Shown: positions 4,258-50,251 of the stretch, piece by piece | How the letters are laid out: each line of letters starts with the position of its first letter | Numbering within the stretch: position 1 is the first letter of the stretch | Source of the DNA: a virus | Lineage: Duplodnaviria > Caudoviricetes | Virus record (IMG/VR): IMGVR_UViG_3300001580_000006 | Span: 128,001-192,000 of that record | Direction: 5' to 3' (one strand) | Length of the DNA: 64,000 nt | Position numbers and translations under genes: made by a program | Notes under the pieces: model-generated | Told to the model about the DNA's origin: nothing | Databases searched by the model: none | What the model saw: the letters and a program-made list of their open reading frames with translations, nothing else

Positions 4258-4602
4258 TTATCCAGAACAGGTTTCACCATACATAAATTCGGATGGTGGA
4301 ATACTACCTTCAATTTTGTGCTTCTTAACCAAGTCAGCTATTTCTTTGTCTACTATAGCACAGGCTTCTGGTATAGTATAGTCTTTTAGAAGCTGCTCAG
4401 CATCCTTTCCAATGCCCCACGCATTGTTATCGTTTACTAAGACAAGCCAATCTCCAATAGTTGTCTGTCCATAGTATGAATCACTATTGTCATTAGCACC
4501 AAGGGCTTTAGCTAGCCTGTCAGCAACAGTTGGAACAGTAATACCAATTATACAAAAGCTGGCGCTTGAGCTATTCGATACGAAACCAGTTCTTACCTTC
4601 AT
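4258..4602 (-). CDS. 'FVSNSSS' N-terminal-motif family protein
   Basis: Starts MKVRTGFVSNSSSASF. Confidence 0.7.
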   Translation of the reverse strand: MKVRTGFVSNSSSASFCIIGITVPTVADRLAKALGANDNSDSYYGQTTIGDWLVLVNDNNAWGIGKDAEQLLKDYTIPEACAIVDKEIADLVKKHKIEGSIPPSEFMYGETCSG

Positions 4603-4886
4603 CCGTTATATCCTCCATCTATGTACCAGTTCAGATTTTCTGCTCTAGCCTCAATACCAACAGAGGCAAGCTGTGCCACTACCCTATTCTTAAACTCTAA
4701 TAGTGTTTCGCTGTCTTTCATGTCTGTTGGTGGCAGTCCTACAAACCTGTCGTCTTCGCAGTATTCTCCGATACCGGAGTGTGACTCCAAATCAGTGCCT
4801 TTTAATGAGCCACAGTCACGCTGTACGCCTAGTATGCAAAAGCTGGAGCTTGAGCTGTTTGAAACGAATCCTTTTCTAATCTTCAT
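4599..4886 (-). CDS. 'FVSNSSS' N-terminal-motif family protein
   Basis: Starts MKIRKGFVSNSSSSSF; ends IDGGYNG. Confidence 0.7.
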   Translation of the reverse strand: MKIRKGFVSNSSSSSFCILGVQRDCGSLKGTDLESHSGIGEYCEDDRFVGLPPTDMKDSETLLEFKNRVVAQLASVGIEARAENLNWYIDGGYNG

Positions 4887-24686: not shown

Positions 24687-25289
24687 TCATTGATATAATC
24701 CACCATCAGTTATGTACTTAGCTACCGCTTCTGGAACAAGGTGTGCTATGTGACCCTGACTTTCTACTATTGCTCTGATAGATGTTGAGCTTATGTTAAG
24801 GTTGTCTACATTTATTAGCTTAAGCTTACTTCGCCATTTATCTGGTATGTCATAACCAAGCCTTGACATTACGCAAACAGTAGATAACTCAAATAGTCGA
24901 TCTGGGTCTTTCCAAGTAGATAGCTCCGCTGCTTGATCAGTTCCCATCAGTAGGAATAGTTCGCAATGCTTTCCGACCCCCTCTCTCATATGAGCTAAGG
25001 TGTCTACTGTATATGAAATATCGCTGTTGTTTACTTCGTAGTCAGAATAAAGAAATGTTGGACGGAAAGGCTTGGGCTCAGAGTATGGCTCTATTGCAAG
25101 CTTTACCATCTCTAAGCGCGTCTTAGCACTAGTAGCGTATCTACGCTTATGAGGAGATTTATTTCCTGTCGGAATAAAAATTACTCCGTCGAGCCCTAAC
25201 TGTAGCCCGGCGGAGTAGGCAGAACTTAGGTGACCGTTGTGTATTGGGTCAAAGGTGCCACCGAACACCCCTATTTTTGCTTTGTGCAT
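24687..25289 (-). CDS. nadD: nicotinate-nucleotide adenylyltransferase
   Basis: GGTFDPIHNGH, SYTVDTL, LMGTD, W, ISSTSIR. Confidence 0.92.
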   Translation of the reverse strand: MHKAKIGVFGGTFDPIHNGHLSSAYSAGLQLGLDGVIFIPTGNKSPHKRRYATSAKTRLEMVKLAIEPYSEPKPFRPTFLYSDYEVNNSDISYTVDTLAHMREGVGKHCELFLLMGTDQAAELSTWKDPDRLFELSTVCVMSRLGYDIPDKWRSKLKLINVDNLNISSTSIRAIVESQGHIAHLVPEAVAKYITDGGLYQ

Positions 25290-28470: not shown

Positions 28471-29265
28471 TTACACCAATACCTTATCTGATGTGGTGAT
28501 AGACATGCCGCGCTTGGTCATCTCGGCGACAAAGTCTGTACCCATCTTTTCGAAGCCAGTAACTGAAGAGGAACAATCTTCTAACAGTATGAACTTCTTG
28601 ATGTTATCCTCGCCAAAGTTGTTGGCGATATCACGGATGGTGTTGGCCACACAATGGCTTAGGGCCTCGCCGGCGATGAGAATCATGTCGGCTTCCTGTA
28701 AGGTCTTGATCAGCCTAGTGTTAAGCATGGTACTGGGGTCTGAAGGATCTGGAACGTCCGCCTGGACGGCCGAGTAGTGCTCGGTCCAGAAGTTGGATCC
28801 CTTGGTGACGTAGTCAATCATGCCGAAATAGTCCTCTTCCCACTTTACCAGCTCTTTGTAGAGGTCAGGGTGGATGTTGTGGCCCGGGGTGCCTATCAGG
28901 CAGTGGGGCGGCCAAATGCACAGCGGATAGCGACCGTTTTTGGCCAGTTCGGTAACGTAAGCTACTGCTCTGGGAAGGAACTGCGGGTTTGTGGTTGTCC
29001 AGATACCGCTCTTGACGTCCTTTTCGCTGATGATGGTAAACGGCCCTGGGTGCTCCCCTTTTGAATTAATCCAGAACAAGGGATGGGCAATGTCGACCAG
29101 GTGGTGAGTATCCATGGTTACATGGATATCGTCCAGCTTGTCACCGATCCGAGCGACCATCTTGGCCAAATTGGACATGTCTTTGTCGGCTCCACCGACG
29201 AATAACGCCCCTTTTGGGTCACAGAAGTCGTTCTGTGGATCGATAACGATTAAGTGAATCTTCAC
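28471..29265 (-). CDS. pncA: nicotinamidase / cysteine hydrolase (PncA-like)
   Basis: IDPQNDFC..GAL, D.H, WPPHC, KG, AGEALSHCV. Confidence 0.8.
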   Translation of the reverse strand: MKIHLIVIDPQNDFCDPKGALFVGGADKDMSNLAKMVARIGDKLDDIHVTMDTHHLVDIAHPLFWINSKGEHPGPFTIISEKDVKSGIWTTTNPQFLPRAVAYVTELAKNGRYPLCIWPPHCLIGTPGHNIHPDLYKELVKWEEDYFGMIDYVTKGSNFWTEHYSAVQADVPDPSDPSTMLNTRLIKTLQEADMILIAGEALSHCVANTIRDIANNFGEDNIKKFILLEDCSSSVTGFEKMGTDFVAEMTKRGMSITTSDKVLV

Positions 29266-29277
29266 GTTATCCTCCTG

Positions 29278-29808
29278 TTAATTGTTGGTTTCTTTTATTA
29301 TAGTTATTGTACCATCCTTGGCAAGGTTGGTTATGTGATTTATTGGAGCATTGGAAAGACCCCAACCTACCTCAACATACAATATGTAAGTTGGCGGAAG
29401 GCCTTTAACAGTGTTCAAGAACTCTTTTCTGCTTGCTAATCTTTCGACAAGGTTTTTTATAGCAGTTTGATATCTACTTCGAATAACAGAGTGGATGTCT
29501 GAATGTGGTTCCATAACAGCCATAGGTGTGCTGGCACTAACTTCTCGTCCAATAGTTAGTGCAAACAATTCGTCTGTGTGCAGTTTGCGAAGAGCTCCTG
29601 TCGCCTCCCTCTGCAATCTAGCTACATGAGCGATGGTGTTTTCTATTATGCCTATTTCTCTTGACAGACCGTCTACTACTGCGTTAGTGTCTGCTGCCCG
29701 CACAGTTTGTACTCCAAACAGACCGAGAGTATCTAGTATAACTTTGGGGCCGGTTATAATAAAGCTTGTAGAGCTGCTGTTGGATACGAAGCTGTCTCTA
29801 ATCTTCAT
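29278..29808 (-). CDS. 'FVSNSSS' N-terminal-motif family protein
   Basis: MKIRDSFVSNSSSTSF. Confidence 0.7.
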   Translation of the reverse strand: MKIRDSFVSNSSSTSFIITGPKVILDTLGLFGVQTVRAADTNAVVDGLSREIGIIENTIAHVARLQREATGALRKLHTDELFALTIGREVSASTPMAVMEPHSDIHSVIRSRYQTAIKNLVERLASRKEFLNTVKGLPPTYILYVEVGWGLSNAPINHITNLAKDGTITIIKETNN

Positions 29809-30236
29809 TAATATCCGCCTTCTTTTCCTATTATGAGGTTAGCTGTCTCTGTATTGAAGTCCATCATAGTCATTGCTTTACAAAGATTGGCTGCTCTGCC
29901 ATCCTCTTGATCCCCAACGAAGCCGATAAACATGGCGGCTTTGCTATAAGCACGCGCGTATTCGTAGGCTATCTTGTGTGATCTCTCTGGTTCCCAAACC
30001 TCACCATGGTAGCCATGCTTAGCGACGTAGTCGTCCAACGCAATTTCTTCGAGCCGTTGCTTCTGCAGTAGGATACGGGCCAGCATCAACTCCTTACCAG
30101 ATAAGCCTGAGCTGGAAGGAATGCACTTAGCAATGGCCTCTGATAGCTGTATGTCAGTAGGGCGCAATCCAGTCTTCGATACTATTACGTAGGAAGAGGA
30201 GGAGCTGTTTGAAACGAAAGCTGTGCGTATTTTCAT
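29808..30236 (-). CDS. 'FVSNSSS' N-terminal-motif family protein
   Basis: MKIRTAFVSNSSSSSY; ends KEGGY. Confidence 0.7.
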   Translation of the reverse strand: MKIRTAFVSNSSSSSYVIVSKTGLRPTDIQLSEAIAKCIPSSSGLSGKELMLARILLQKQRLEEIALDDYVAKHGYHGEVWEPERSHKIAYEYARAYSKAAMFIGFVGDQEDGRAANLCKAMTMMDFNTETANLIIGKEGGY

Positions 30237-30457
30237 CCGTTATGTCCTGTCTTAGTTAAGAAGTCGTCTAGATTGTAGCCAGCAGCGTGTACTGCCAAGT
30301 ACGTAGCGTTATCTGACTCGTCCACTACTATCCCAGTATCGTCATTAATGTACACGTCTGGTGTGCTATGAAGTACGCCTATACCGGGATGTGACGGATC
30401 TGTAATAACATAACTACTCGAACTGGAGTTGGATACGAAACTTGTTCTTATTTTCAT
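30233..30457 (-). CDS. 'FVSNSSS' N-terminal-motif family protein
   Basis: MKIRTSFVSNSSSSSY. Confidence 0.7.
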   Translation of the reverse strand: MKIRTSFVSNSSSSSYVITDPSHPGIGVLHSTPDVYINDDTGIVVDESDNATYLAVHAAGYNLDDFLTKTGHNG

Positions 30458-30864
30458 GAGTACCTCGTTCCTGTAAATATTCTCAGTTTGCTGGGGGTTT
30501 GAAAGTCCTCGCCTTTAGCATATACGTTGAATTTTTCTATCAACATCCATGCGTCCTTTCGAAGCTTTTCTATGTCATATCGTTTGTTTTCAAGCTTGTC
30601 GCCCCAAGCTAGAGGTATACCTAGTATTATTTTGCCTTTGCTGGCTTCACCGTCTTCTCCTACTAGAATGACACAGTCATCTTCTGTGTTATTACCAAAG
30701 CTGTCTAATGCATCTCTTATAGAATCCTCATCGTTTTGATCAAATTCGTTCATACTCATCTTGGCAAGAATAATTCTGTTATGTTTAGTGTCTGCTAACT
30801 CAACACCAGCAATAACAAATGAGCTTGAACTAGAATTTGACACGAATTTGTAACGGTGTTTCAT
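30454..30864 (-). CDS. 'FVSNSSS' N-terminal-motif family protein
   Basis: MKHRYKFVSNSSSSSF. Confidence 0.7.
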   Translation of the reverse strand: MKHRYKFVSNSSSSSFVIAGVELADTKHNRIILAKMSMNEFDQNDEDSIRDALDSFGNNTEDDCVILVGEDGEASKGKIILGIPLAWGDKLENKRYDIEKLRKDAWMLIEKFNVYAKGEDFQTPSKLRIFTGTRYS

Positions 30865-31016
30865 AAATCTCCTTGGTACTGTTCATAGTCCGCAAACCAT
30901 TCTATGGAACAGCATTTGCAAGTACCTTTCCATGTGTATTGGTATTGTTCGCCAACTAACTCCATGGAGACCTCTGCCCCACAGACACACGTTAATTTTG
31001 GTACAACGCCTGGCAT
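30861..31016 (-). CDS. small Cys-rich protein, 51 aa (absent from ORF track)
   Basis: MPGVVPKLTCVCG...GTCKCC; stop overlaps next ATG (ATGA). Confidence 0.5.
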   Translation of the reverse strand: MPGVVPKLTCVCGAEVSMELVGEQYQYTWKGTCKCCSIEWFADYEQYQGDL

Positions 31017-31113
31017 TTCAAAATCCTATTTTACAGAAATTTCAAATTGTAACTCGAAAATCAAAACTTCGCCGGGAAAATTTCCAGATTTTCGGTTTTT
31101 CCTAATAGCATTT

Positions 31114-31938
31114 TTAGTGCTGACTGATTCTGCGATGAACTACGTATCTAAACGTGCCACCGTGCTCTAGGCAGGAACCTACTGTGCCGTCTTCGTCAGC
31201 ATACCTTAGGGTAAACCAGTGTTTGTTTGGGTGTGCGAGCTGGATGGCCTGCCAATCCTCTTTGGCTCTCTTCTTACTGTAATTAGCAGAATCCTTACTG
31301 TATTTGTTCTGAGCAGCACCAAAAGCCGCCCTGTCCAGATATTTCTGCCAACCGGGTAGTGGGCCAAACTGCTTTACTGCGGCTTCTGATAAGCTTGAGC
31401 TACTTACGGCGTCTATGAGGTGTTTCGATAGTCTTATTAGTGCCTCTGGGTCAAAGGAGTTCTCTTTTGGTGTAAATCTATTGTAGACACTTACTAAGTG
31501 CTTGTCACCATACTTTGCTTCGGTGTCGAGTCCTCCTACCTTATCAGCAAGCCATAAGTATAAAGCTGATGCTGCACGAACCGCATCGATGTCATATTGC
31601 TCCATATCAGAGTACTTTTCGTGGCTTGGCCATTCTCCAAACAGACGTACGACGTCATCATGGTATTCCCAGCCACTAGACAGCAGCTCCAGTATCTGCT
31701 CAGTAGTAGCCTCGCCCTTAGATAAGTCAGATAACACTATTTCAAGAATGGTGCCATTGGTTGGTATTCTGGAGACATCGTCGTAGTAGTCTGGAGCCGC
31801 TATGTATGGCCCATCAAAATCTACTAGTTGCCTAAATAGAATCTTTGATAGTTCTTCTTTGGTAGTTGGAATAGAATCTAGTCCTACCAAAAACCCTGAA
31901 GAGGACGAATTTGCTACATGTCTAAGTCTATGCTTCAT
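31114..31938 (-). CDS. 'NSSS' N-terminal-motif family protein
   Basis: MKHRLRHVANSSSSGF. Confidence 0.7.
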   Translation of the reverse strand: MKHRLRHVANSSSSGFLVGLDSIPTTKEELSKILFRQLVDFDGPYIAAPDYYDDVSRIPTNGTILEIVLSDLSKGEATTEQILELLSSGWEYHDDVVRLFGEWPSHEKYSDMEQYDIDAVRAASALYLWLADKVGGLDTEAKYGDKHLVSVYNRFTPKENSFDPEALIRLSKHLIDAVSSSSLSEAAVKQFGPLPGWQKYLDRAAFGAAQNKYSKDSANYSKKRAKEDWQAIQLAHPNKHWFTLRYADEDGTVGSCLEHGGTFRYVVHRRISQH

Positions 31939-32413
31939 TTATACCCCATAGTTATAAACCCACCGTCTACCTTACTACCGTTTGCAACAATATGCAGTAC
32001 TTGCCCGTTTGGCATGCGCAGCTGCAGCTCTTCATGTAGGCCGCCGTGGTCTATAAACTTCTCTACTGATATTCCATGTTCTTTTAGAATGTCTTCTATA
32101 GCGTTAATTCGCTTTAGTTGACCTTTACTAACTTCACCTTCGGTTATCATTGTAGTCTGTTCCTTTACAAGCATGAATAACAATATCCTTATTCATTTAT
32201 CCCATCTTTATAGTCTCACCTTCGGACAGTTTTGGTCTAGCACCGCAAGTCTATCCATTACCTTGTTAAACTTACTTTTGGCTTCAGCTAGTCTACTTGA
32301 TACATGCTCTGCTAAGTTTGCACCGCAGCTAAATTCGTCAAGAATGCTATGATACTCTAAATAGTATCTTCTAGCGTCGGCTTTAAGCTTATTCATGTGC
32401 TCTCCTTAGTTAG

Positions 32414-32444
32414 CCCCTGGTAAGGCGTTTTGCCTTACCAGGGG
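32414..32444 (-). terminator. perfect 13-bp hairpin after Ubl gene (terminator or mRNA stabiliser)
   Basis: CCCCTGGTAAGGC-5 nt-GCCTTACCAGGGG; no U-tract on minus strand. Confidence 0.5.
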
Positions 32445-32452
32445 TATTTGGC

Positions 32453-32674
32453 CTACCGACCGCCGGACACGTCGTCGATCACGGTAACGATGTCGCCAGC
32501 CTTGAGGACAGTGCCCTCTTTGGCGGTTTCGCCGTTAACCCGCACAGACGAATTGTACTCCAACTCCTGCTTCTGCAGAAATTCGGTCAGAGTAGTACCC
32601 GCCTTCACGACGCAGCGCTTCAGACCCTCGGTCAGCCGACCCAGCTGAACGGGAATAGATGTCACGTTGCTCAT
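32453..32674 (-). CDS. ubiquitin-like/MoaD-ThiS protein with masked C-terminal GG (VSGG-R)
   Basis: GTTLTEFL...VRVNG...LKAGDIVTVIDDVSGGR. Confidence 0.88.
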   Translation of the reverse strand: MSNVTSIPVQLGRLTEGLKRCVVKAGTTLTEFLQKQELEYNSSVRVNGETAKEGTVLKAGDIVTVIDDVSGGR

Positions 32675-32691
32675 TTTGCTTCCTCTTTGGT

Positions 32692-33246
32692 TTATGGTTT
32701 ATTGTTAATAGCGGCACCTCGCCGCTTTGGGGGAACATATCCTGCTGGAACTACAGCGATCTCCACGCTTTGAACGTCGCCACCTATAGCTATTTGCGCA
32801 GAAGTACCATCTGGCATGTAGGCAAGGAATATTGATCCTGGGTTGTCGAAGATTCCTTCACCTGCTTCTCCTTCCCAGTCCGGTACTTCACCACTTCTAA
32901 ACAAATAACCGAAACCGCCAAATGTCAGTCCTTTTTTAGCTAGCTCTAGAAATTTGTTGGTTAAATCACTGGAGCGAACAGTTGGCATAAAATCGCAACC
33001 ACCAGCTCTAGTAAGCGGTACTATGGTTGTGCAAACACCAACCTTGTTAGCCCCGAGCATATACAGTTCACTAACGTTACCGCACTCATTTCTGAGGTGT
33101 ATCATCTTGTTATGTAGACGATTACTGATATAAATCGTCTTTCCAGAACGTGAGAAATCGCTCAGTGTTCTACCTCCTCCACCATCGTCATCATCTATAA
33201 AATCTGACGAAGACGAGTTTGCTACGAATCCTAATCTTATCTTCAT
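32692..33246 (-). CDS. MPN-like paralog 6 fused to 'NSSS' N-terminal tag
   Basis: MKIRLGFVANSSSSDF, then ISNRLH...LYMLGAN...GCDFMP. Confidence 0.7.
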   Translation of the reverse strand: MKIRLGFVANSSSSDFIDDDDGGGGRTLSDFSRSGKTIYISNRLHNKMIHLRNECGNVSELYMLGANKVGVCTTIVPLTRAGGCDFMPTVRSSDLTNKFLELAKKGLTFGGFGYLFRSGEVPDWEGEAGEGIFDNPGSIFLAYMPDGTSAQIAIGGDVQSVEIAVVPAGYVPPKRRGAAINNKP

Positions 33247-33650
33247 ATAACAACTGTTAATCCTGCTACGATACGGTTATTATTTCGGTTTACTACTCTA
33301 ACTACAGACCTACCTTTATTGTAAAGGATGAATGGCATTCGTGTGTCATATAACGCACTACCGTGGTCCGGACTCCAAGCTGTTCTTACTTGTAGGTTAC
33401 TTTGTACCAAAGCAAATGCTACCGGTTTTGACTTTTTCTTAGCCAGCTCAACATAGGCTTTTGTAACAGAAGATGAGTGGGCCCCAGGCATAAATTCACA
33501 CCCTACATCTCGTGCTATAGGCATAAAATTATCTATTATGCCAAGCCTATTAGCTCCTAGTAAGTATAATACTGCGTATTTATCTGAGTTATCTTCTGAC
33601 TCCTGCTTAAATACTTTGTGCAGGCCTCTCGATATCTTTAGCTTATCCAT
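33243..33650 (-). CDS. MPN-like paralog 5
   Basis: ISRGLH...LYLLGAN...GCEFMP...PVAFALVQ. Confidence 0.7.
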   Translation of the reverse strand: MDKLKISRGLHKVFKQESEDNSDKYAVLYLLGANRLGIIDNFMPIARDVGCEFMPGAHSSSVTKAYVELAKKKSKPVAFALVQSNLQVRTAWSPDHGSALYDTRMPFILYNKGRSVVRVVNRNNNRIVAGLTVVI

Positions 33651-34053
33651 TAACTACTCGCAATCTTATACTATTAATGCTACTGTTGCTACTTATTCTT
33701 GCTGCATGCCTGCCTCTGTTGTAATATATAAACGGTATTTTAGACTTATACAGGGCTGTGCCTTGCATCACTTGGTACCCTGGCTTTTTCTTACTTATTG
33801 TTCCTTGAATAACTGCTAAAGCGCACGGCGCTAGACTTATATTGGCTAGACGCATATATGCGGTGGTCATTCCTTGAATACTTGCTTCTGGCATCCAGGC
33901 ACATCCACGGGTTGTAATAGGTACGCTAGTGCTTCTAATTATTACCCCATCGGTATTCTTTCCTAACAAGTATATTACAGTTTCAGGCGAGTTTTTAGCA
34001 GAGGTAGACTTCAGTCTCTCATGCAACTTCTTGGTAATAATTAGCTTATTCAT
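33643..34053 (-). CDS. MPN-like paralog 4
   Basis: ITKKLH...IYLLGKN...GCAWMP...PCALAVIQ. Confidence 0.7.
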   Translation of the reverse strand: MNKLIITKKLHERLKSTSAKNSPETVIYLLGKNTDGVIIRSTSVPITTRGCAWMPEASIQGMTTAYMRLANISLAPCALAVIQGTISKKKPGYQVMQGTALYKSKIPFIYYNRGRHAARISSNSSINSIRLRVVNG

Positions 34054-34448
34054 ACTGTTTCAACAACGAATGATTCTGTAATACTACCATTGTACTGCCT
34101 GGCTATATGCTCTCCAGTACGATAGAACAAGAACGGTATCTTTAATCTAAACAAGTCTAAACCATGGAAAGAATAGTTTCCTACTTCTTTAGCACCGCGA
34201 TATTGAATAACTGCTAAGGCGCAGGGTTTTCTACCTTTCTTTACAAGGGTGATGTAGGCGTCTGTTATGGTTCTAACTGTTACGCTTGGCATCCATCCAC
34301 ATCCTATATTTCCATTACGTAAAGCCACAGAGTCAACAATCGTTCCTGCCCTGTTTTTGCCCAAGAGGAAAAGCTTTCTGCCATTCGGATGATCGGCAGA
34401 ATACTTTTTAAGCTTGTTGTGCAAATTCTTCTTTATTTTTAGCTGCAT
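34050..34448 (-). CDS. MPN-like paralog 3
   Basis: IKKNLH...LFLLGKN...GCGWMP...PCALAVIQ. Confidence 0.7.
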   Translation of the reverse strand: MQLKIKKNLHNKLKKYSADHPNGRKLFLLGKNRAGTIVDSVALRNGNIGCGWMPSVTVRTITDAYITLVKKGRKPCALAVIQYRGAKEVGNYSFHGLDLFRLKIPFLFYRTGEHIARQYNGSITESFVVETV

Positions 34449-34848
34449 TGTCTTTCAAATATAATCTTGTTGGTGTGTGAACAAAGCCGACGGTTTTCAT
34501 AGCCTTTGCTGCACCAGCTTCGTAGTACAGTACTGGGAGCCTTAGCTTTACAAATCCTTCTCCAATTTCTGGTCTCCACCCCGGCTTTCTCCCGCCTTCG
34601 TTATTTTGTACAACTGCTAGCGCTCTTGGCCTAAAGCCTAAGTTTGTAACTTTTAGATAGGTTTTAGTTAACAGCGTACTGGATAAGTGTGGCATAGACC
34701 AGCAACCATCATCAGTATCCATTAAGTCGCAACGTATAGATACGCTGCCGTGGTTTGAAGATAATAAATAAGCTTTAGCGGCTCGCTCATTAGCCAAAGA
34801 CTCTTTCTTCAGCAGTTTGTGAAGCTCTCTAGATAGTTTAATGCTCAT
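34408..34848 (-). CDS. MPN-like paralog 2
   Basis: LSRELH...AYLLSSN...GCWSMP...PRALAVVQ. Confidence 0.7.
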   Translation of the reverse strand: MSIKLSRELHKLLKKESLANERAAKAYLLSSNHGSVSIRCDLMDTDDGCWSMPHLSSTLLTKTYLKVTNLGFRPRALAVVQNNEGGRKPGWRPEIGEGFVKLRLPVLYYEAGAAKAMKTVGFVHTPTRLYLKDNAAKNKEEFAQQA

Positions 34849-35252
34849 TTGATTTTCGTTATTTTTACTGCTGCTGCTCGTGGCTTTCCATTTGTAAAGA
34901 CTCTGCCAACGTGCCTACCAGCACGATAATATAGGATGGGAAGCCCCATCCTACCGATATAGCTCCCTTGTGTTCCAGACCAGCCGGCTTTGATTGTGTT
35001 GCGCTGCGCTTGCACTACGGCTAAACCGCTTGGAGTCATATTCTTTTTAGCCAGTGCTATATATATTTGCGTTAAATCGCTAGACTTTACGCCAGGCATC
35101 CAACTGCAGCCGTTCCCAGTACTCGGCAGGCTGTGAGCAGCTGTCAATATTCCTTTATCATTATCGGTAAGAACGAATAGCATTGCCCTATCTATGGTTC
35201 TCCTAGACATTTCTTTGAGACCATTATGTAGAGCTTTATCTATTTTTATCAT
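34845..35252 (-). CDS. MPN-like paralog 1
   Basis: IDKALH...LFVLTDN...GCSWMP...PSGLAVVQ. Confidence 0.7.
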   Translation of the reverse strand: MIKIDKALHNGLKEMSRRTIDRAMLFVLTDNDKGILTAAHSLPSTGNGCSWMPGVKSSDLTQIYIALAKKNMTPSGLAVVQAQRNTIKAGWSGTQGSYIGRMGLPILYYRAGRHVGRVFTNGKPRAAAVKITKIK

Positions 35253-46116: not shown

Positions 46117-46953
46117 CTACTTTCTGGCATTTTCATTGTCCATTGCGTTTTGAAGTGCCACCATCTCGTCTTCTACTTGGTACACCTGATCGATAAACGA
46201 TTTCTCTCTCTTGAGCAAGCGATTGCGCTCATATGGTAGGTTGATTTCTATCTTCTTTACCATTTGGCCTGGGTTCGATCTCATTAGGTATATTTCATCA
46301 GCAAGATATACTGCCTCTGAGATGTCATGGGTGACAAATATTACAGTGGTCTTTATTTTCGGCCACAGGTCGCAGAGAAGGTCCTGCATCTTAAGCCGAG
46401 TATTTATGTCTAGAGCGCCAAAAGGCTCATCCATCAAAAGGACCTCAGGGCTAGTTAACAGGCTTCTAGCGATAGCTACTCTCTGTAGCTGGCCGCCTGA
46501 AAGTGTGGGGTATTTAGCATATTTCCAGCCTTGGCCTTCTAGCCCCACTAAACGTAGCATTTCCTTAGCTTTAGCTGTACGTTCTTCCTTCGGCACGCCT
46601 TTATAATAGAGCCCTAAGGCTACGTTTTCCTCAACGCTAAGCCATGGAAAGGAAGAGTACTGCTGAAAAACCATGGAGGTGGGCATCTGCCTAGACGCTA
46701 CTTTACCGTTTATAAGGATAGTGCCGGCCGTAGGCTTTTGAATACCTGATATGTAACGTAGTACCGTTGACTTGCCGCAACCTGACGCTCCCAAGATTAC
46801 AACGAACTTACCGGCTGTCGATCCGTCTTCGATTAATAGGTCCAAGTCTTTGAGGACCCAGTGGTTACCGCCATCATACGATTGGCTCACTTTCTGTAGT
46901 TCTACAGAATCCCTTTTATTGGGATCATTAAAGATTGGTATATTTTCGTACAT
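46117..46953 (-). CDS. ABC transporter ATP-binding subunit (TauB/SsuB-like; start reassigned to 46953)
   Basis: GASGCGKST, LSGGQLQR, LLMDEPFGALD, VTHD; GAGG RBS before MYENIP. Confidence 0.93.
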   Translation of the reverse strand: MYENIPIFNDPNKRDSVELQKVSQSYDGGNHWVLKDLDLLIEDGSTAGKFVVILGASGCGKSTVLRYISGIQKPTAGTILINGKVASRQMPTSMVFQQYSSFPWLSVEENVALGLYYKGVPKEERTAKAKEMLRLVGLEGQGWKYAKYPTLSGGQLQRVAIARSLLTSPEVLLMDEPFGALDINTRLKMQDLLCDLWPKIKTTVIFVTHDISEAVYLADEIYLMRSNPGQMVKKIEINLPYERNRLLKREKSFIDQVYQVEDEMVALQNAMDNENARK

Positions 46954-46954
46954 G

Positions 46955-47740
46955 TTATTTCCTCTTATAAGGGAATAGCGTATTATCAAGCCACTTGAAC
47001 ACACGGTCTTGGATAAATCCAATAAGTATGATGACGAGAAGGACCGCAAACACTTTGTCCATTCTGCATTGTCTAGATGCTGAAAATATCAAAGCGCCTA
47101 AGCCGCCAGTTTTGTTAACCAACTCCGCCACAATGATATACGTCCACGATATGGCCACCAGAACCCGAATGTCATCCGATAATTTTGATAAAACGGCAGG
47201 GATGTACACAGAGTGTATCTGCTGCCAACGGGATGCACCTAAGGTTCTGGAGGTCTGAACGTAGACGTCTTCTAGCTCGTCAATTCGTTGTACTACCACC
47301 GGAAGGAGGTAGACGAAAATGCCGAAAGCTAGGAACAACACCTTCATATTAGTTTCGATTCCGAACCAGGCTATAAAGATGCCAGTAAGAGCAGTGAGGG
47401 GAAGGAACCTAGAAGCGTCAATGTAACGGGAAAATAGGCTTCTGCAAATAGGAAACAATCCTATTGGAAAGCCTATAAGAAACGCAGCCACAACAGCTTC
47501 TACGTACCCAAGCAGGTTAAGCTTGATAGAGTACCCCGCGTTCATTATGAGCGCGTCGTCAAAGTGAAGCTCACTAAACGATGTTATTACTTTCCAAGGT
47601 GCAGGAAGGATAGAAGGTGGAAGTAGGCCAGCACCTGTGATATAGGTCCAAACTGCTAGAATTATAGCAAAGCCGGCTACCTCTATCGTAAGGCCTGTGC
47701 GCTTGTCTAAACGGCCACGCAGTTCAAAAAATCTTTTCAC
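46955..47740 (-). CDS. ABC transporter permease (TauC/SsuC-like)
   Basis: Multiple TM segments; TLGASRWQ EAA-like loop; IVAEL....GLG. Confidence 0.9.
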   Translation of the reverse strand: MKRFFELRGRLDKRTGLTIEVAGFAIILAVWTYITGAGLLPPSILPAPWKVITSFSELHFDDALIMNAGYSIKLNLLGYVEAVVAAFLIGFPIGLFPICRSLFSRYIDASRFLPLTALTGIFIAWFGIETNMKVLFLAFGIFVYLLPVVVQRIDELEDVYVQTSRTLGASRWQQIHSVYIPAVLSKLSDDIRVLVAISWTYIIVAELVNKTGGLGALIFSASRQCRMDKVFAVLLVIILIGFIQDRVFKWLDNTLFPYKRK

Positions 47741-48522
47741 TTCTTCTCCTTAGGAGTACTGTGAATAGCTACCGATTTGTTTTCGCAATCTCAGCTCTTC
47801 TAATTCTTTCTTTGGTGTTGCTATGGTATACAGAAAGGGCAGCTACAGTGCAGGCAATAATAAGCCAGAGAATGAGCAGTGCTTTGGAATAGTTACTCAT
47901 AAGCATGCTCTGGAAGACTGGTTTTGCAGAGATAAGCACATGCGGTACATGTTACCTCGCCGTTTTTAGGGTACTCAATAATGTCATTCAGCGTGTGGCA
48001 TTGTGGACAAACCCACTCGTACCCTTTGGCTATTATATCAACTGTTTCCATAGTCAGTCCTTGATGTGCATTACTTTAAATTGCTGAAGTTGTGGCATAC
48101 CATATCCTACCCAGACACCGTCAAACTTTCCTAGCCACTTTTTGATGGCGTCTTCGGTGTCCTCTAGCACCATATGGTTGCCACGTACCGTGTTTCGTAG
48201 GTCATCATTCACCACAATTTCTATTTCACCAGCGTCAAGTAACACTTTCGCCGTTTCCGGAATGGGCAGAAGCTTTGGCTCTACGAGTATATTTATTGTC
48301 ATCCGCAGCATCCTTTGAATGTTACCAAATCTCTTAGCCTGAGAGAGTTGTTTGTCAGTATGATGTGTCCGTTTGGTTCTTTAACCTCGAACTGATCACG
48401 CTGTGTGGCTTTACTATTTACTTGTTCGGCCATTCCTAAAATCAATGCGCCAAGTGGATCCGGTGCATCGATACTATACTCAGCGTTTGGAAACTTTACA
48501 ATGTAGTCCATAATTCCTTTTC

Positions 48523-48607
48523 GACGGTGGCTGGGCGACTTAGGATTTTAGTCCACACTATCGTCACATAGTAGCCAGATTCCACTGGCATCTCCCAACT
48601 CACCATC
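48523..48607 (-). ncRNA. circularly permuted tRNA-mimic RNA (T arm, closed acceptor, D arm)
   Basis: GATGGTG-A-GTTGGG/CCCAGC-CACCGTC closing stem; AGAT; GCCAG-TGGAAT-CTGGC; TACTAT/ATAGTG; TG; GACT/AGTC. Confidence 0.6.
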
Positions 48608-48712
48608 TCTGCAGAAGGGCGGCCCACAGGCTGTGGACGTATTTTGTTATTGGTCGACGTGGGTCCCTAGTCCACGCCGTTCTGCCCCAATTGACGGGGA
48701 CAGTAGACGCAC

Positions 48713-50251
48713 TTAATCGAGAAGTTCGAAGTCAGTGCGTCTATTCTTGGCCCGACCCCCAGAAGTAGTATTATCTGCTATGGGGTTGTCTGGGCCGTTT
48801 CCGACAACTATAAACCGGTCAGGGTCGAAGCCGTAACGCTGGACTAGGTAGGTAGCTACGGACTTGGCTCTCCTATACGAAAGATCGCGGTTGTACCCAG
48901 GATCACCGGTGTTGTCGGTGTTGCCCTCGACCCGCACCCGCGCTTTGGCGAAACCAGCTGCAATGTTGCCGAATTGCTGATCGATGAGGTATTTTGCGTT
49001 ATCATCGAGCGCATCAGCGTTCACAGCATAGTTCACCGTTACCCTCTTAGTCGTGACTGCGGGGGCACTCTTCATACCGGAAGGTGCTTTTTCAAACGCA
49101 GTAACGGATTCAGCAACGTGCGAGGGACCAGTTAGATCCACTGCCCGCAATATTGCGGTGTTGCTTATCGACCGCCAATTGGGTACTTTTGCCGGTGCAA
49201 AGCCGAGGTTTAGAAAGGCTTCAGCCATTTGTAAATATAGCTTTTCGCCTGTCATGCCAGAGTAATCGTTATTCAGATTAAAGAAGTTTACGTTGTCACC
49301 GTAAGTGGTTAAATACGCATTGTTTACAGCAATCCACATAAAGTCTTCGCTCTGATTCATGCCGTCTGCCAAATATTTGGCAGCTTCACGGCGTGAGCCT
49401 TGATCGGAGTTAAGAGTGGCATTGGCTGATAGCCAGCCTGTGACCAAAGCAACCAGCTCTTTCTCGTGCTTGTCTATGAAGGACCTCTTAGCGAAGTAAA
49501 CGTCCGCTATAATATTTGAAGCCTGCTTCGTTGAACGTAGCACCTTGGCACCCTTAACAGTATTCACGCAGTCCTCGTCGTCTGGGCTCCAGACGACGGC
49601 GGCGTCCACCTGACCAGCTTTGAAGTACCCGGCAGCGTCAATTGCCGAAGGCGCCTCAACCACCTTAATGTCGTTATAATCCAGGTTACTGGCCAATAGC
49701 ATACTTACTAATAAGGTGTGGGAGGGCTGAGCGAAGGCTACTGCTACCTTCTTTCCTTTCAGTTGCTCGAACGAGGTTATGCCCGGCCGAACTACTATAG
49801 CGTCTCCACCGCGGCTCCAGTCTATCTGGAAGAATATCTGTGGTTCAAGCTCTGCTAGGCCAGAAGCGAACGTCGGAAAGACGTCTGCTGTAGTCCACAT
49901 GAGATCGACCTTATCGGCTTTCCATGCCTCTCTAGCGGTGGTTGGGTCATCGATCAGTACGAAATTCACATTGATGCCGTACTTCTTCGAGAACTCGGAT
50001 TCTGAGTTGGCTTTGAATCCTTTGTTGTACCACACTCCACCTGCGAATCCGCCCCAAGTATTAACGCAGACGTTGATGGTCTTCTTGCCGCCGAATATAG
50101 AAGGGGACGATTTCGAAGCACCCTTTCCTTCGGGGATAAGCGATTTGCCCATCTTGGTGTTCTTTAGCAGCGCAACGCCGCCGACTAGGCCGGCCAGAAT
50201 CACAACCATTAAGAAGATTCTGGCAAACGGCGTCATCTGTGTCTTGGCCAT
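48713..50251 (-). CDS. ABC substrate-binding protein (NMT1/THI5-like) fused to OmpA-like peptidoglycan-binding domain
   Basis: N-terminal TM; DWSRGGDAIV; EGNTD..G...N..LS.RRA..V; G...P.A.N....GRAKNRR. Confidence 0.88.
   Translation of the reverse strand: MAKTQMTPFARIFLMVVILAGLVGGVALLKNTKMGKSLIPEGKGASKSSPSIFGGKKTINVCVNTWGGFAGGVWYNKGFKANSESEFSKKYGINVNFVLIDDPTTAREAWKADKVDLMWTTADVFPTFASGLAELEPQIFFQIDWSRGGDAIVVRPGITSFEQLKGKKVAVAFAQPSHTLLVSMLLASNLDYNDIKVVEAPSAIDAAGYFKAGQVDAAVVWSPDDEDCVNTVKGAKVLRSTKQASNIIADVYFAKRSFIDKHEKELVALVTGWLSANATLNSDQGSRREAAKYLADGMNQSEDFMWIAVNNAYLTTYGDNVNFFNLNNDYSGMTGEKLYLQMAEAFLNLGFAPAKVPNWRSISNTAILRAVDLTGPSHVAESVTAFEKAPSGMKSAPAVTTKRVTVNYAVNADALDDNAKYLIDQQFGNIAAGFAKARVRVEGNTDNTGDPGYNRDLSYRRAKSVATYLVQRYGFDPDRFIVVGNGPDNPIADNTTSGGRAKNRRTDFELLD

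Follow-up and report, generated by a model that had tools for sequence, protein, structure and literature searches.

The radical S-adenosylmethionine (SAM) enzyme anSME modifies a Ser or Cys within a short motif found in many full-size client proteins. In the prochlorosins, a single enzyme, ProcM, serves many ProcA precursors that combine a conserved N-terminal leader with a hypervariable remainder, and in T4 a capsid targeting sequence of ~10 N-terminal residues is carried by unrelated internal proteins (IPI-III, Alt) encoded at plastic loci of the T4-like phages. Here we describe a 16-residue N-terminal sequence (the tag), M-K-[IVT]-R-x-G-F-V-S-N-S-S-[ST]-x-S-F, which always begins at residue 1 and is shared by otherwise dissimilar proteins (its clients) of one phage contig, IMGVR_UViG_3300001580_000006 (223,464 bp). 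The stretch of this contig that we analysed, the window, is 64,000 nt long (positions 128001-192000). We propose that the tag is probably a portable recognition-and-modification tag for a radical SAM enzyme encoded in the same window at 36633-37727.

A preliminary description of the window had listed eight open reading frames (ORFs) that start with M-K-x-R-x-x-(F/H)-V-(S/A)-N-S-S-S-x-S-(F/Y) and then diverge. All eight were present, on the minus strand and 74-274 aa in length; where possible, they were assigned to subfamilies with hidden Markov models (HMMs) trimmed of the tag.

4258-4602, minus strand: tagged ORF of 114 aa; ..YGExxxG subfamily, with full-length homologues in metagenomes
4599-4886, minus strand: tagged ORF of 95 aa; ends in DGGYNG; W(Y/R)DG-type subfamily (tag-trimmed HMM, E = 2.6e-8)
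29278-29808, minus strand: tagged ORF of 176 aa; ends in ..IIKETNN, resembling the ..KE(T/S)T tail class
29808-30236, minus strand: tagged ORF of 142 aa; ..EGGY subfamily (tag-trimmed HMM, E = 4.9e-22)
30233-30457, minus strand: tagged ORF of 74 aa; ends in ..TGHNG; overlaps each neighbouring gene by 4 nt
30454-30864, minus strand: tagged ORF of 136 aa; ends in ..GTRYS, resembling the GT(R/E)xC class; no assignment from the subfamily HMMs
31114-31938, minus strand: tagged ORF of 274 aa; (R/K)ISxH / RISHH subfamily, which is the phrog_7397 class (tag-trimmed HMM, E = 3.4e-23)
32692-33246, minus strand: tagged ORF of 184 aa; tag at residues 1-16, a linker containing DDDDGGGG, and a domain like that of neighbouring 135-aa paralogues

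Aligned with one another, the eight proteins were invariant at M1, K2, R4, V8, N10, S11, S12 and S13 and showed little similarity past the motif, in keeping with the divergence first reported for them. A six-frame scan of the whole genome found 12 copies of the motif placed at a start codon, all on one strand and all with Asn10. The same scan found three other [VIL][SAT]NSSS strings in the genome, none at the start of an ORF. From the ORF coordinates, adjacent tagged genes overlap by 1-4 nt, and the arrays are therefore translationally coupled. The copies beyond the window lie together:

Genome positions 120022-121769 (outside the window, ~6-8 kb before its start), minus strand: four further tagged genes, of 134, 124 or 130, 125, and 135 aa

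Three of these four have a CxxC...CxxC zinc ribbon right behind the tag and were assigned to a zinc-ribbon class by the tag-trimmed HMMs. The four genes are flanked by a region encoding SbcD-like nuclease and MazG-like proteins and by a metallophosphatase.

The tag is under selection as a protein sequence. Across the 12 copies of this genome and 307 relatives, AGY and TCN codons were both used at every Ser position, all six Ser codons occurred in the tag, and Arg4 was encoded by both AGR and CGN. The mixture of Ser codons noted in the preliminary description thus extends well beyond the window. This mixture indicates that conservation acts on the protein and not on a DNA repeat, and a repeat origin of the tag was ruled out on the same codon usage. 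Conservation was quantified in 456 distinct proteins from all fetched loci, under a relaxed filter that allowed up to 4 mismatches in the 13 specified positions. Four positions were near-absolute (S11 100%, N10 99.8%, S12 99.8%, R4 99.6%); K2, F7 and S9 were conserved at ~98%, and G6, V8, S15 and F16 at ~95-96%.

We compared the tag with several known sequence signatures. The sulfatase motif (C/S)-x-(P/A)-x-R is not contained in the consensus MK.R.GFVSNSSS.SF. The glycyl radical fingerprint R-V-x-G-[FWY], which lies near the C-terminus, was not matched either: the tag is N-terminal and the spacing of its R-x-G-F differs, and G6 is absent from 5 of the 8 window copies and from 4% of the 456 relatives, unlike the essential Gly of glycyl radical enzymes. 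Residues 9-15 consist of Ser and Asn, and neither a twin Arg nor an L-x-x-C lipobox is conserved across subfamilies, so that the features of Sec, Tat and lipoprotein signals were not found.

Tagged proteins are abundant in viral metagenomes. Homologues of the 114-aa member (4258-4602) are ~105-155 aa long in metagenomes, with the first 20 residues almost invariant and an overall identity of ~40%. When a profile of these homologues was searched against 1.84 billion cluster representatives, 12,787 clusters, nearly all of them viral, matched at E<=1e-3 and 1,466 at E<=1e-10, and the neighbours of the 114-aa member in the ESM Atlas were unnamed clusters, >90% viral. A pattern scan of 2.9 million viral contigs gave 543 matches for the tag and 284 for the enzyme; measured against all contigs, the two elements are rare. 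From IMG/VR, the tag drew 70 loci on contigs of 10-548 kb. These loci held 335 ORFs with an NSSS-type core a few residues past the start codon, 318 of which passed the full-motif filter, and the tagged genes stood in tandem, with up to 15 in 20 kb. Judged from these searches, the tag family is very large and phage-wide, and not a local curiosity.

The co-occurrence check suggested in the preliminary description was run in both directions and was strongly positive. Among the 70 loci drawn by the tag, 43 had a full-length homologue of the radical SAM enzyme within 10 kb (tblastn, 33-58% identity). When the ORFs of these loci were clustered, the enzyme was found in 41 loci and every other untagged family in no more than 7. 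Of 24 records without a nearby enzyme gene, 7 had the gene at another place on the contig, and the rest were mostly fragments with an estimated completeness of 6-55%. In the reverse direction, IMG/VR loci were drawn by the enzyme alone; a search with the single protein gave only one locus, and an alignment of 36 enzymes (A3) gave 80. At least one ORF beginning with the strict tag lay within 10 kb of the enzyme in 74 of these 80 loci, and 47 had at least three. The tag ORFs were always on the enzyme's strand, and their positions peaked right behind its stop codon, on the downstream side. The genetic linkage of tag and enzyme family is tight in both directions.

The same pairing was found outside uncultured viruses. 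A scan of one genome per bacterial and archaeal species yielded only 23 tag loci, all in metagenome-assembled genomes (MAGs), with the enzyme present in 13 of the 23. Seven Acidobacteriota and Verrucomicrobiota contigs (up to 1.47 Mb) each had one tagged gene with the enzyme close behind it; the enzyme was only 27-30% identical and the tag was unchanged. On one of these, an Acidobacteriota MAG contig of 1.47 Mb (L164:6736-11502), a 137-aa tagged gene overlaps a 384-aa radical SAM gene. This pair adjoins an Avs2-like STAND NTPase (PADLOC, E = 3.6e-33 and 1.8e-23), whose N-terminus resembles a restriction endonuclease, and an ORF that by eye, from its translation, resembles a tyrosine recombinase; the surroundings look like a defence island or mobile element.

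In GenBank phages, the enzyme was present in 172 of 50,697 records, (nearly) all of them T4-like, including Pseudotevenvirus, from hosts of the genera Klebsiella, Enterobacter, Cronobacter, Citrobacter and Escherichia. Carriers include phiEap-3, whose enzyme is gp161, KP15/KP27 and RB43. Two tagged proteins of phage phiEap-3, gp113 and gp118 (the latter being phrog_7397, E = 8e-115), were found in 174 and 175 GenBank records, with genus tallies that nearly match those of the enzyme. Co-occurrence in these cultured phages comes from one clade and was taken as a single observation; diversity is far greater among the metagenomic loci. The protein gp113 (L151:1040-1510) also matches phrog_132, 'head-tail adaptor' (E = 6.5e-9), a label that has been copied into some GenBank records and that may be an annotation artefact, given the early-gene position and the tag. 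At another locus (L010:6388-8926) an insertion splits the radical SAM gene into two ORFs, and for a Slopekvirus a comparable split, together with a GIY-YIG homing endonuclease, has been reported (PMC9960720).

One window protein shows a natural graft of the tag. In ORF 32692-33246, the tag (residues 1-16) is followed by IDDDDGGGGRTLSDF... and then by a domain like that of five adjacent paralogues that lack the tag:

33243-35252, minus strand: five tandem untagged paralogues of ~135 aa, with invariant LH and GCxxMP; located between the E1 gene and the tagged sixth copy

Compared with the untagged paralogue at 33243-33650, the tagged protein gave a BLASTP E of 5e-16, and LH, GCxxMP and other columns were common to both. 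The fusion of the tag to this paralogue family, as first described, is therefore borne out by homology; the family had been called MPN-like, and the single paralogue that was scanned had no Pfam or NCBIfam hit. Since the tag here sits on a flexible DDDDGGGG linker ahead of an otherwise untagged family, the tag is portable. A search for further cargo families with untagged relatives found none besides this one; the apparent cases were tag variants (GFVGNSSS and GWVSNSSS, for example), over-extended ORFs and fragments.

We then considered the sequences behind the tag. Clients were 66-279 aa in length, with a median of 126. After removal of the first 18 residues, 433 distinct proteins fell into 164 BLAST clusters, among which were ~20 recurrent subfamilies, each with its own motif at the extreme C-terminus (..EGGY, ..AW(Y/R)DG, ..GT(R/E)xC, ..(R/K)ISHH, ..YGExxxG, ..DNDNH and ..GAxRNG), as well as the CxxC zinc-ribbon class. 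The Gly-rich tails pointed out in the preliminary description are thus real and recur in other phages, but they are signatures of subfamilies and not a second shared tag. Profile-profile comparison (hhalign) of the 17 largest tag-trimmed subfamilies gave a probability of at most 13% in all but three of the 136 pairs, and by this measure the trimmed subfamilies appear to have no detectable relation to one another.

Database searches gave few names for this cargo. For 140 cluster representatives there was a single Pfam domain hit (DUF4325), and the sole PHROG matched was phrog_7397, of unknown function. For the eight window clients, Pfam and NCBIfam gave nothing meaningful and PADLOC gave nothing. 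The C-terminus of the 274-aa client (31114-31938) matched phrog_7397 at positions 138-170; the other window clients matched this PHROG in the tag part only. Searches of GenBank phages with the window clients and the window DNA (tblastn and blastn) gave no match; masking of the Ser run and divergence of the cargo are the probable reasons.

Structure modelling covered one client, the 114-aa protein at 4258-4602. AlphaFold2, given a 25-sequence alignment, predicted a small alpha/beta domain with a mean predicted local distance difference test (pLDDT) score of 83.8. Residues 1-10 scored <50, strand 1 spanned residues 13-21, and the last strand was at the C-terminus. In this model, the tag has a first half that resembles a free N-terminal peptide and a second half that appears to run into the fold. 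The fold itself had no usable structural match (Foldseek best E = 0.32; VIA-align Z <=4.3), and a match to Mx2 in a PDB sequence search was discarded as a chance hit.

The predicted partner of these clients is encoded upstream of the larger array:

36633-37727, minus strand: radical SAM enzyme of 364 aa, the predicted tag maturase, with CX3CX2C at C61/C65/C68

The three Cys of the CX3CX2C motif were invariant in the 36 homologues of alignment A3, and exactly four more Cys were invariant: C263, C288, C306 and C355. Many residues of the N-terminal segment, including K14, S18, Y21, N22 and W35, were invariant as well. The enzyme's sole Pfam family was PF04055 (40 bits against a cut-off of 29.5), which together with CX3CX2C places it in the radical SAM superfamily. 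It matched phrog_7293, of unknown function (E = 3.7e-87), and its GenBank annotations go no further than 'radical SAM' or 'Fe-S oxidoreductase'. In NCBIfam only the N-terminal cores of SPASM-type maturases matched, all far below cut-off; these were the maturase of a tungsten-cofactor oxidoreductase, NirJ, WgkB, MftC and ScmE. Homologues of the enzyme came just under threshold for TIGR04085 (25.2 bits against 27) and for the NF033640 twitch model. PADLOC gave only generic viperin-core hits on the enzymes.

The AlphaFold2 model of the enzyme (pLDDT 94.5) has four short strands ahead of the radical SAM barrel, which form a conserved mini-domain at residues 4-35 that is not an obvious winged helix-turn-helix. 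Its best solved Foldseek neighbours were SuiB (E = 1.3e-10), SkfB, CteB and TigE, followed by BtrN, viperin, EpeE, anSME and PqqE. The only sequence-level PDB hit for the C-terminal region was a weak one to the twitch domain of BtrN (E = 9e-4). Four invariant Cys agree with the 3-4 or so auxiliary Cys of a twitch domain, and a full two-cluster SPASM domain was unsupported. We therefore read the enzyme as a peptide- or protein-modifying radical SAM enzyme with one auxiliary Fe-S cluster; of the SPASM-type assignment made in the preliminary description, the auxiliary-cluster domain stands, but it is twitch-like, with one cluster.

Taken with the graft at 32692-33246 and the unrelated trimmed subfamilies, the two-way co-occurrence supports the earlier suggestion of a portable radical SAM substrate tag, and we infer that the tag is the substrate of the enzyme at 36633-37727. 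Several points weigh against this reading. Co-occurrence is no proof of an enzyme-substrate relation. Two fairly complete records (88% and 79%) have tagged genes and no enzyme hit, the 10 kb around the enzyme are free of tag genes in 6 of its 80 loci, and in Slopekvirus the clients lie ~20 kb away from the enzyme. Within the tag, G6 is missing from the majority of the window copies though 96% conserved elsewhere, and residues 13-21 are the predicted first beta strand of the client fold, so that the tag is partly structural. In the enzyme, no leader-binding domain of the RiPP recognition element (RRE) type was recognised, there being no RRE match in Pfam or NCBIfam (RiPPs are ribosomally synthesized and post-translationally modified peptides). 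Finally, the tag is unchanged where the enzyme has drifted to 27-30% identity, beyond what simple co-adaptation of enzyme and peptide needs. This constancy hints at an extra constraint, from the chemistry or from a conserved third or downstream partner.

The co-occurrence data would fit equally if the tag were a docking peptide, which binds the enzyme unmodified while the variable domains bring host or phage targets to it or regulate it. That one enzyme goes with many different cargo domains, and that the tag is invariant though the enzyme falls to 28% identity, agree with such an adaptor. We nevertheless consider it unlikely: small polar residues as nearly absolute as N10, S11 and S12 are found more typically at a reaction site than in a strand used for docking, each of the nearest solved enzymes modifies its bound peptide, and the neighbourhoods of the 70 loci held no second conserved substrate candidate. 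Common descent provides a different account of the tag, in which all clients are divergent members of one ancient small alpha/beta family, the motif is a core strand with a ligand- or metal-binding loop, and the enzyme is linked only through a shared pathway. The strand positions in the one modelled client (residues 13-21 and the C-terminus), the conserved motif at the extreme C-terminus of every subfamily, and the finding that nearly all cargo families are known in tagged form only would all agree with it. Against a single fold stand the low hhalign probabilities for almost all trimmed pairs, client sizes from 66 to 279 aa with zinc-ribbon and other unrelated inserts, and the placing of residues 1-10, the most conserved part, outside the predicted fold. 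The graft is also hard to accommodate, with its tag on a flexible acidic and Gly-rich linker and five neighbours of its domain untagged. On balance, one ancestral fold seems to us an improbable source of the motif.

Two further accounts were weighed. The tag could be a targeting or cleavage signal that has nothing to do with the enzyme, like the capsid targeting sequence of T4, or an export or degradation signal; it is indeed a short N-terminal sequence common to unrelated proteins in plastic arrays, and a client from Slopekvirus has a weak match to a PHROG that bears the label head-tail adaptor. We regard this as very unlikely, as it leaves the two-way linkage unexplained and the bacterial chromosomal pairs are not beside virion genes. 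Read directly, the tag sequence has no hydrophobic core, signal-peptidase or lipobox site, or L/I-x-E protease site; cleavage would destroy its predicted strand, and no protease was conserved nearby in the 70 loci. Alternatively, the tag could be a substrate of the JAB, E1 and ubiquitin-like (Ubl) proteins of this window, or be recognised by them, with the Gly-rich C-termini as conjugation ends. The JAB-E1-Ubl cassette is indeed closely followed, on its downstream side, by six tagged genes, and its paralogue family has one tagged member. This possibility is largely refuted and now barely credible: in the full set of 174 fetched loci there was no JAB, E1 or 135-aa paralogue, and Ubl occurred in one; tblastn against the 70 tag-drawn loci found no homologue of any of the four, and the Gly-rich tails vary by subfamily and recur in phages without a Ubl system. 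We conclude that the cassette has been inserted between the enzyme and its array and lies outside the module. The preliminary description was right about the local position of the six copies, in or downstream of a radical SAM-JAB-E1 operon, but JAB and E1 are not part of what is conserved.

Returning to the tag as a substrate, we envisage that one enzyme would serve many unrelated small clients, as a RiPP maturase serves precursors with a shared leader, with the clients here being whole proteins. The flexible N-terminus (~residues 1-12) would enter the enzyme, and K2-V8 would perhaps pair as a strand with the N-terminal beta mini-domain. The 5'-deoxyadenosyl radical would take a hydrogen at or close to R4 or N10-S11-S12, all of them almost invariant, and the second electron would go to the single auxiliary Fe-S cluster. 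Auxiliary clusters act as electron sinks in SuiB-type cross-linking and in BtrN/anSME-type dehydrogenation. The product would be that of a two-electron oxidation, either a C-C or C-O cross-link involving F7 or an oxidised, formylglycine-like Ser, and the candidate sites of modification are N10-S11-S12 and the R4/K2-F7 pair. Provided that the tag is modified, we tentatively place a cross-link involving F7 first. Oxidation of Ser (or Asn) would be a weaker candidate, and epimerisation an unlikely one, with other chemistry making up the remainder. Epimerase chemistry is disfavoured because the enzyme has no free invariant Cys beyond the four cluster ligands.

The tandem, fast-diversifying arrays, placed among early and DNA-metabolism genes, suggest that the clients are host-directed effectors. 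Other genes of the window were noted by the way. Just upstream of the radical SAM gene, a minus-strand ORF of 571 aa (38278-39993) had a weak hit to the kinase part of the class III lanthionine synthetase LanKC (E = 0.0033); to find a kinase-like gene next to a tag rich in Ser is suggestive, but this gene was not conserved at other loci. By eye, four minus-strand ORFs (24687-25289, 28471-29265, 39990-41447 and 43883-45052) resemble NAD-salvage genes, the likenesses being to nicotinamidase/isochorismatase, nicotinate phosphoribosyltransferase, NMN adenylyltransferase and Nudix proteins. Nicotinamidase-like and vWA genes recur beside tag arrays in a few contigs (L003/L004 and L146/L147). Also by eye, 46117-50251 on the minus strand encodes an ABC-transporter-like set: besides an ATPase and a permease, it includes a large protein that resembles substrate-binding proteins and ends in an OmpA-like C-terminus.

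A literature search found no paper that prints the motif, links the enzyme to substrates or describes the phage system, and no curated family either; the proposed protein modification system has most likely not been described before. If our reading is true, ~12,800 clusters of viral 'hypothetical proteins' would gain a shared biochemistry and the enzyme family would gain its probable substrates. Should the module further prove to be a protein-scale counterpart of the RiPPs, as considered below, it would constitute a new post-translational modification, and a new organising principle for a large share of the 'hypothetical' genes of phages. Enzymologists and protein engineers would have an interest in a 16-residue tag able to steer a radical SAM enzyme to folded proteins of any kind. 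The arrays resemble fast-evolving effector sets, and their function may bear on phage-host conflict. As the system occurs in cultured, tractable T4-like phages, the predicted modification is open to direct mass spectrometry.

We compared the module with the known systems that it most resembles. The capsid targeting sequence of T4 differs in its unrelated sequence, in having no radical SAM link and in its cleavage by the prohead protease at L/I-x-E. Both anSME and BtrN were in the enzyme's Foldseek list, and BtrN has a single-cluster twitch domain, but similarity in sequence is weak (E ~1e-3). The anSME substrate motif (C/S)-x-P-x-R is missing here, anSME has two auxiliary clusters, and the present clients are not sulfatases. 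The prochlorosins share the use of one modifying enzyme for a large and rapidly diversifying gene set; they differ in that ProcM is a lanthionine synthetase, and in that the precursors lose a long leader and give rise to small peptides.

The closest parallel is with the RiPP radical SAM/SPASM-twitch systems (SuiB/streptide and the SkfB and CteB sactipeptides), in which the gene of an enzyme with a C-terminal auxiliary-cluster domain has next to it one substrate gene or many, whose products agree in an N-terminal recognition sequence and vary beyond it; SuiB, SkfB and CteB are also the best structural neighbours of the window enzyme. Like RiPP precursor genes, the substrate genes proposed here are co-localised with the enzyme and share a recognition sequence. 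The differences are substantial, however. The clients, at 66-280 aa and with predicted folded domains, are not short peptides; only 16 residues are conserved, from Met1 and with no Cys; there is one auxiliary cluster rather than two, and no RRE was recognised; and the system is essentially phage-borne. Neither a short precursor nor a leader protease or exporter was found at the 70 loci, where only the enzyme is conserved in the neighbourhood. It is possible, though we hold it tentatively, that the module is a protein-scale counterpart of the RiPPs, in which a dedicated enzyme puts an oxidative modification (a cross-link or reactive carbonyl) on a 16-residue handle of thousands of unrelated small effector families; the modified N-terminus would then be the common functional module, as a warhead, a cofactor or a cap against proteases, with target specificity coming from the variable domain.

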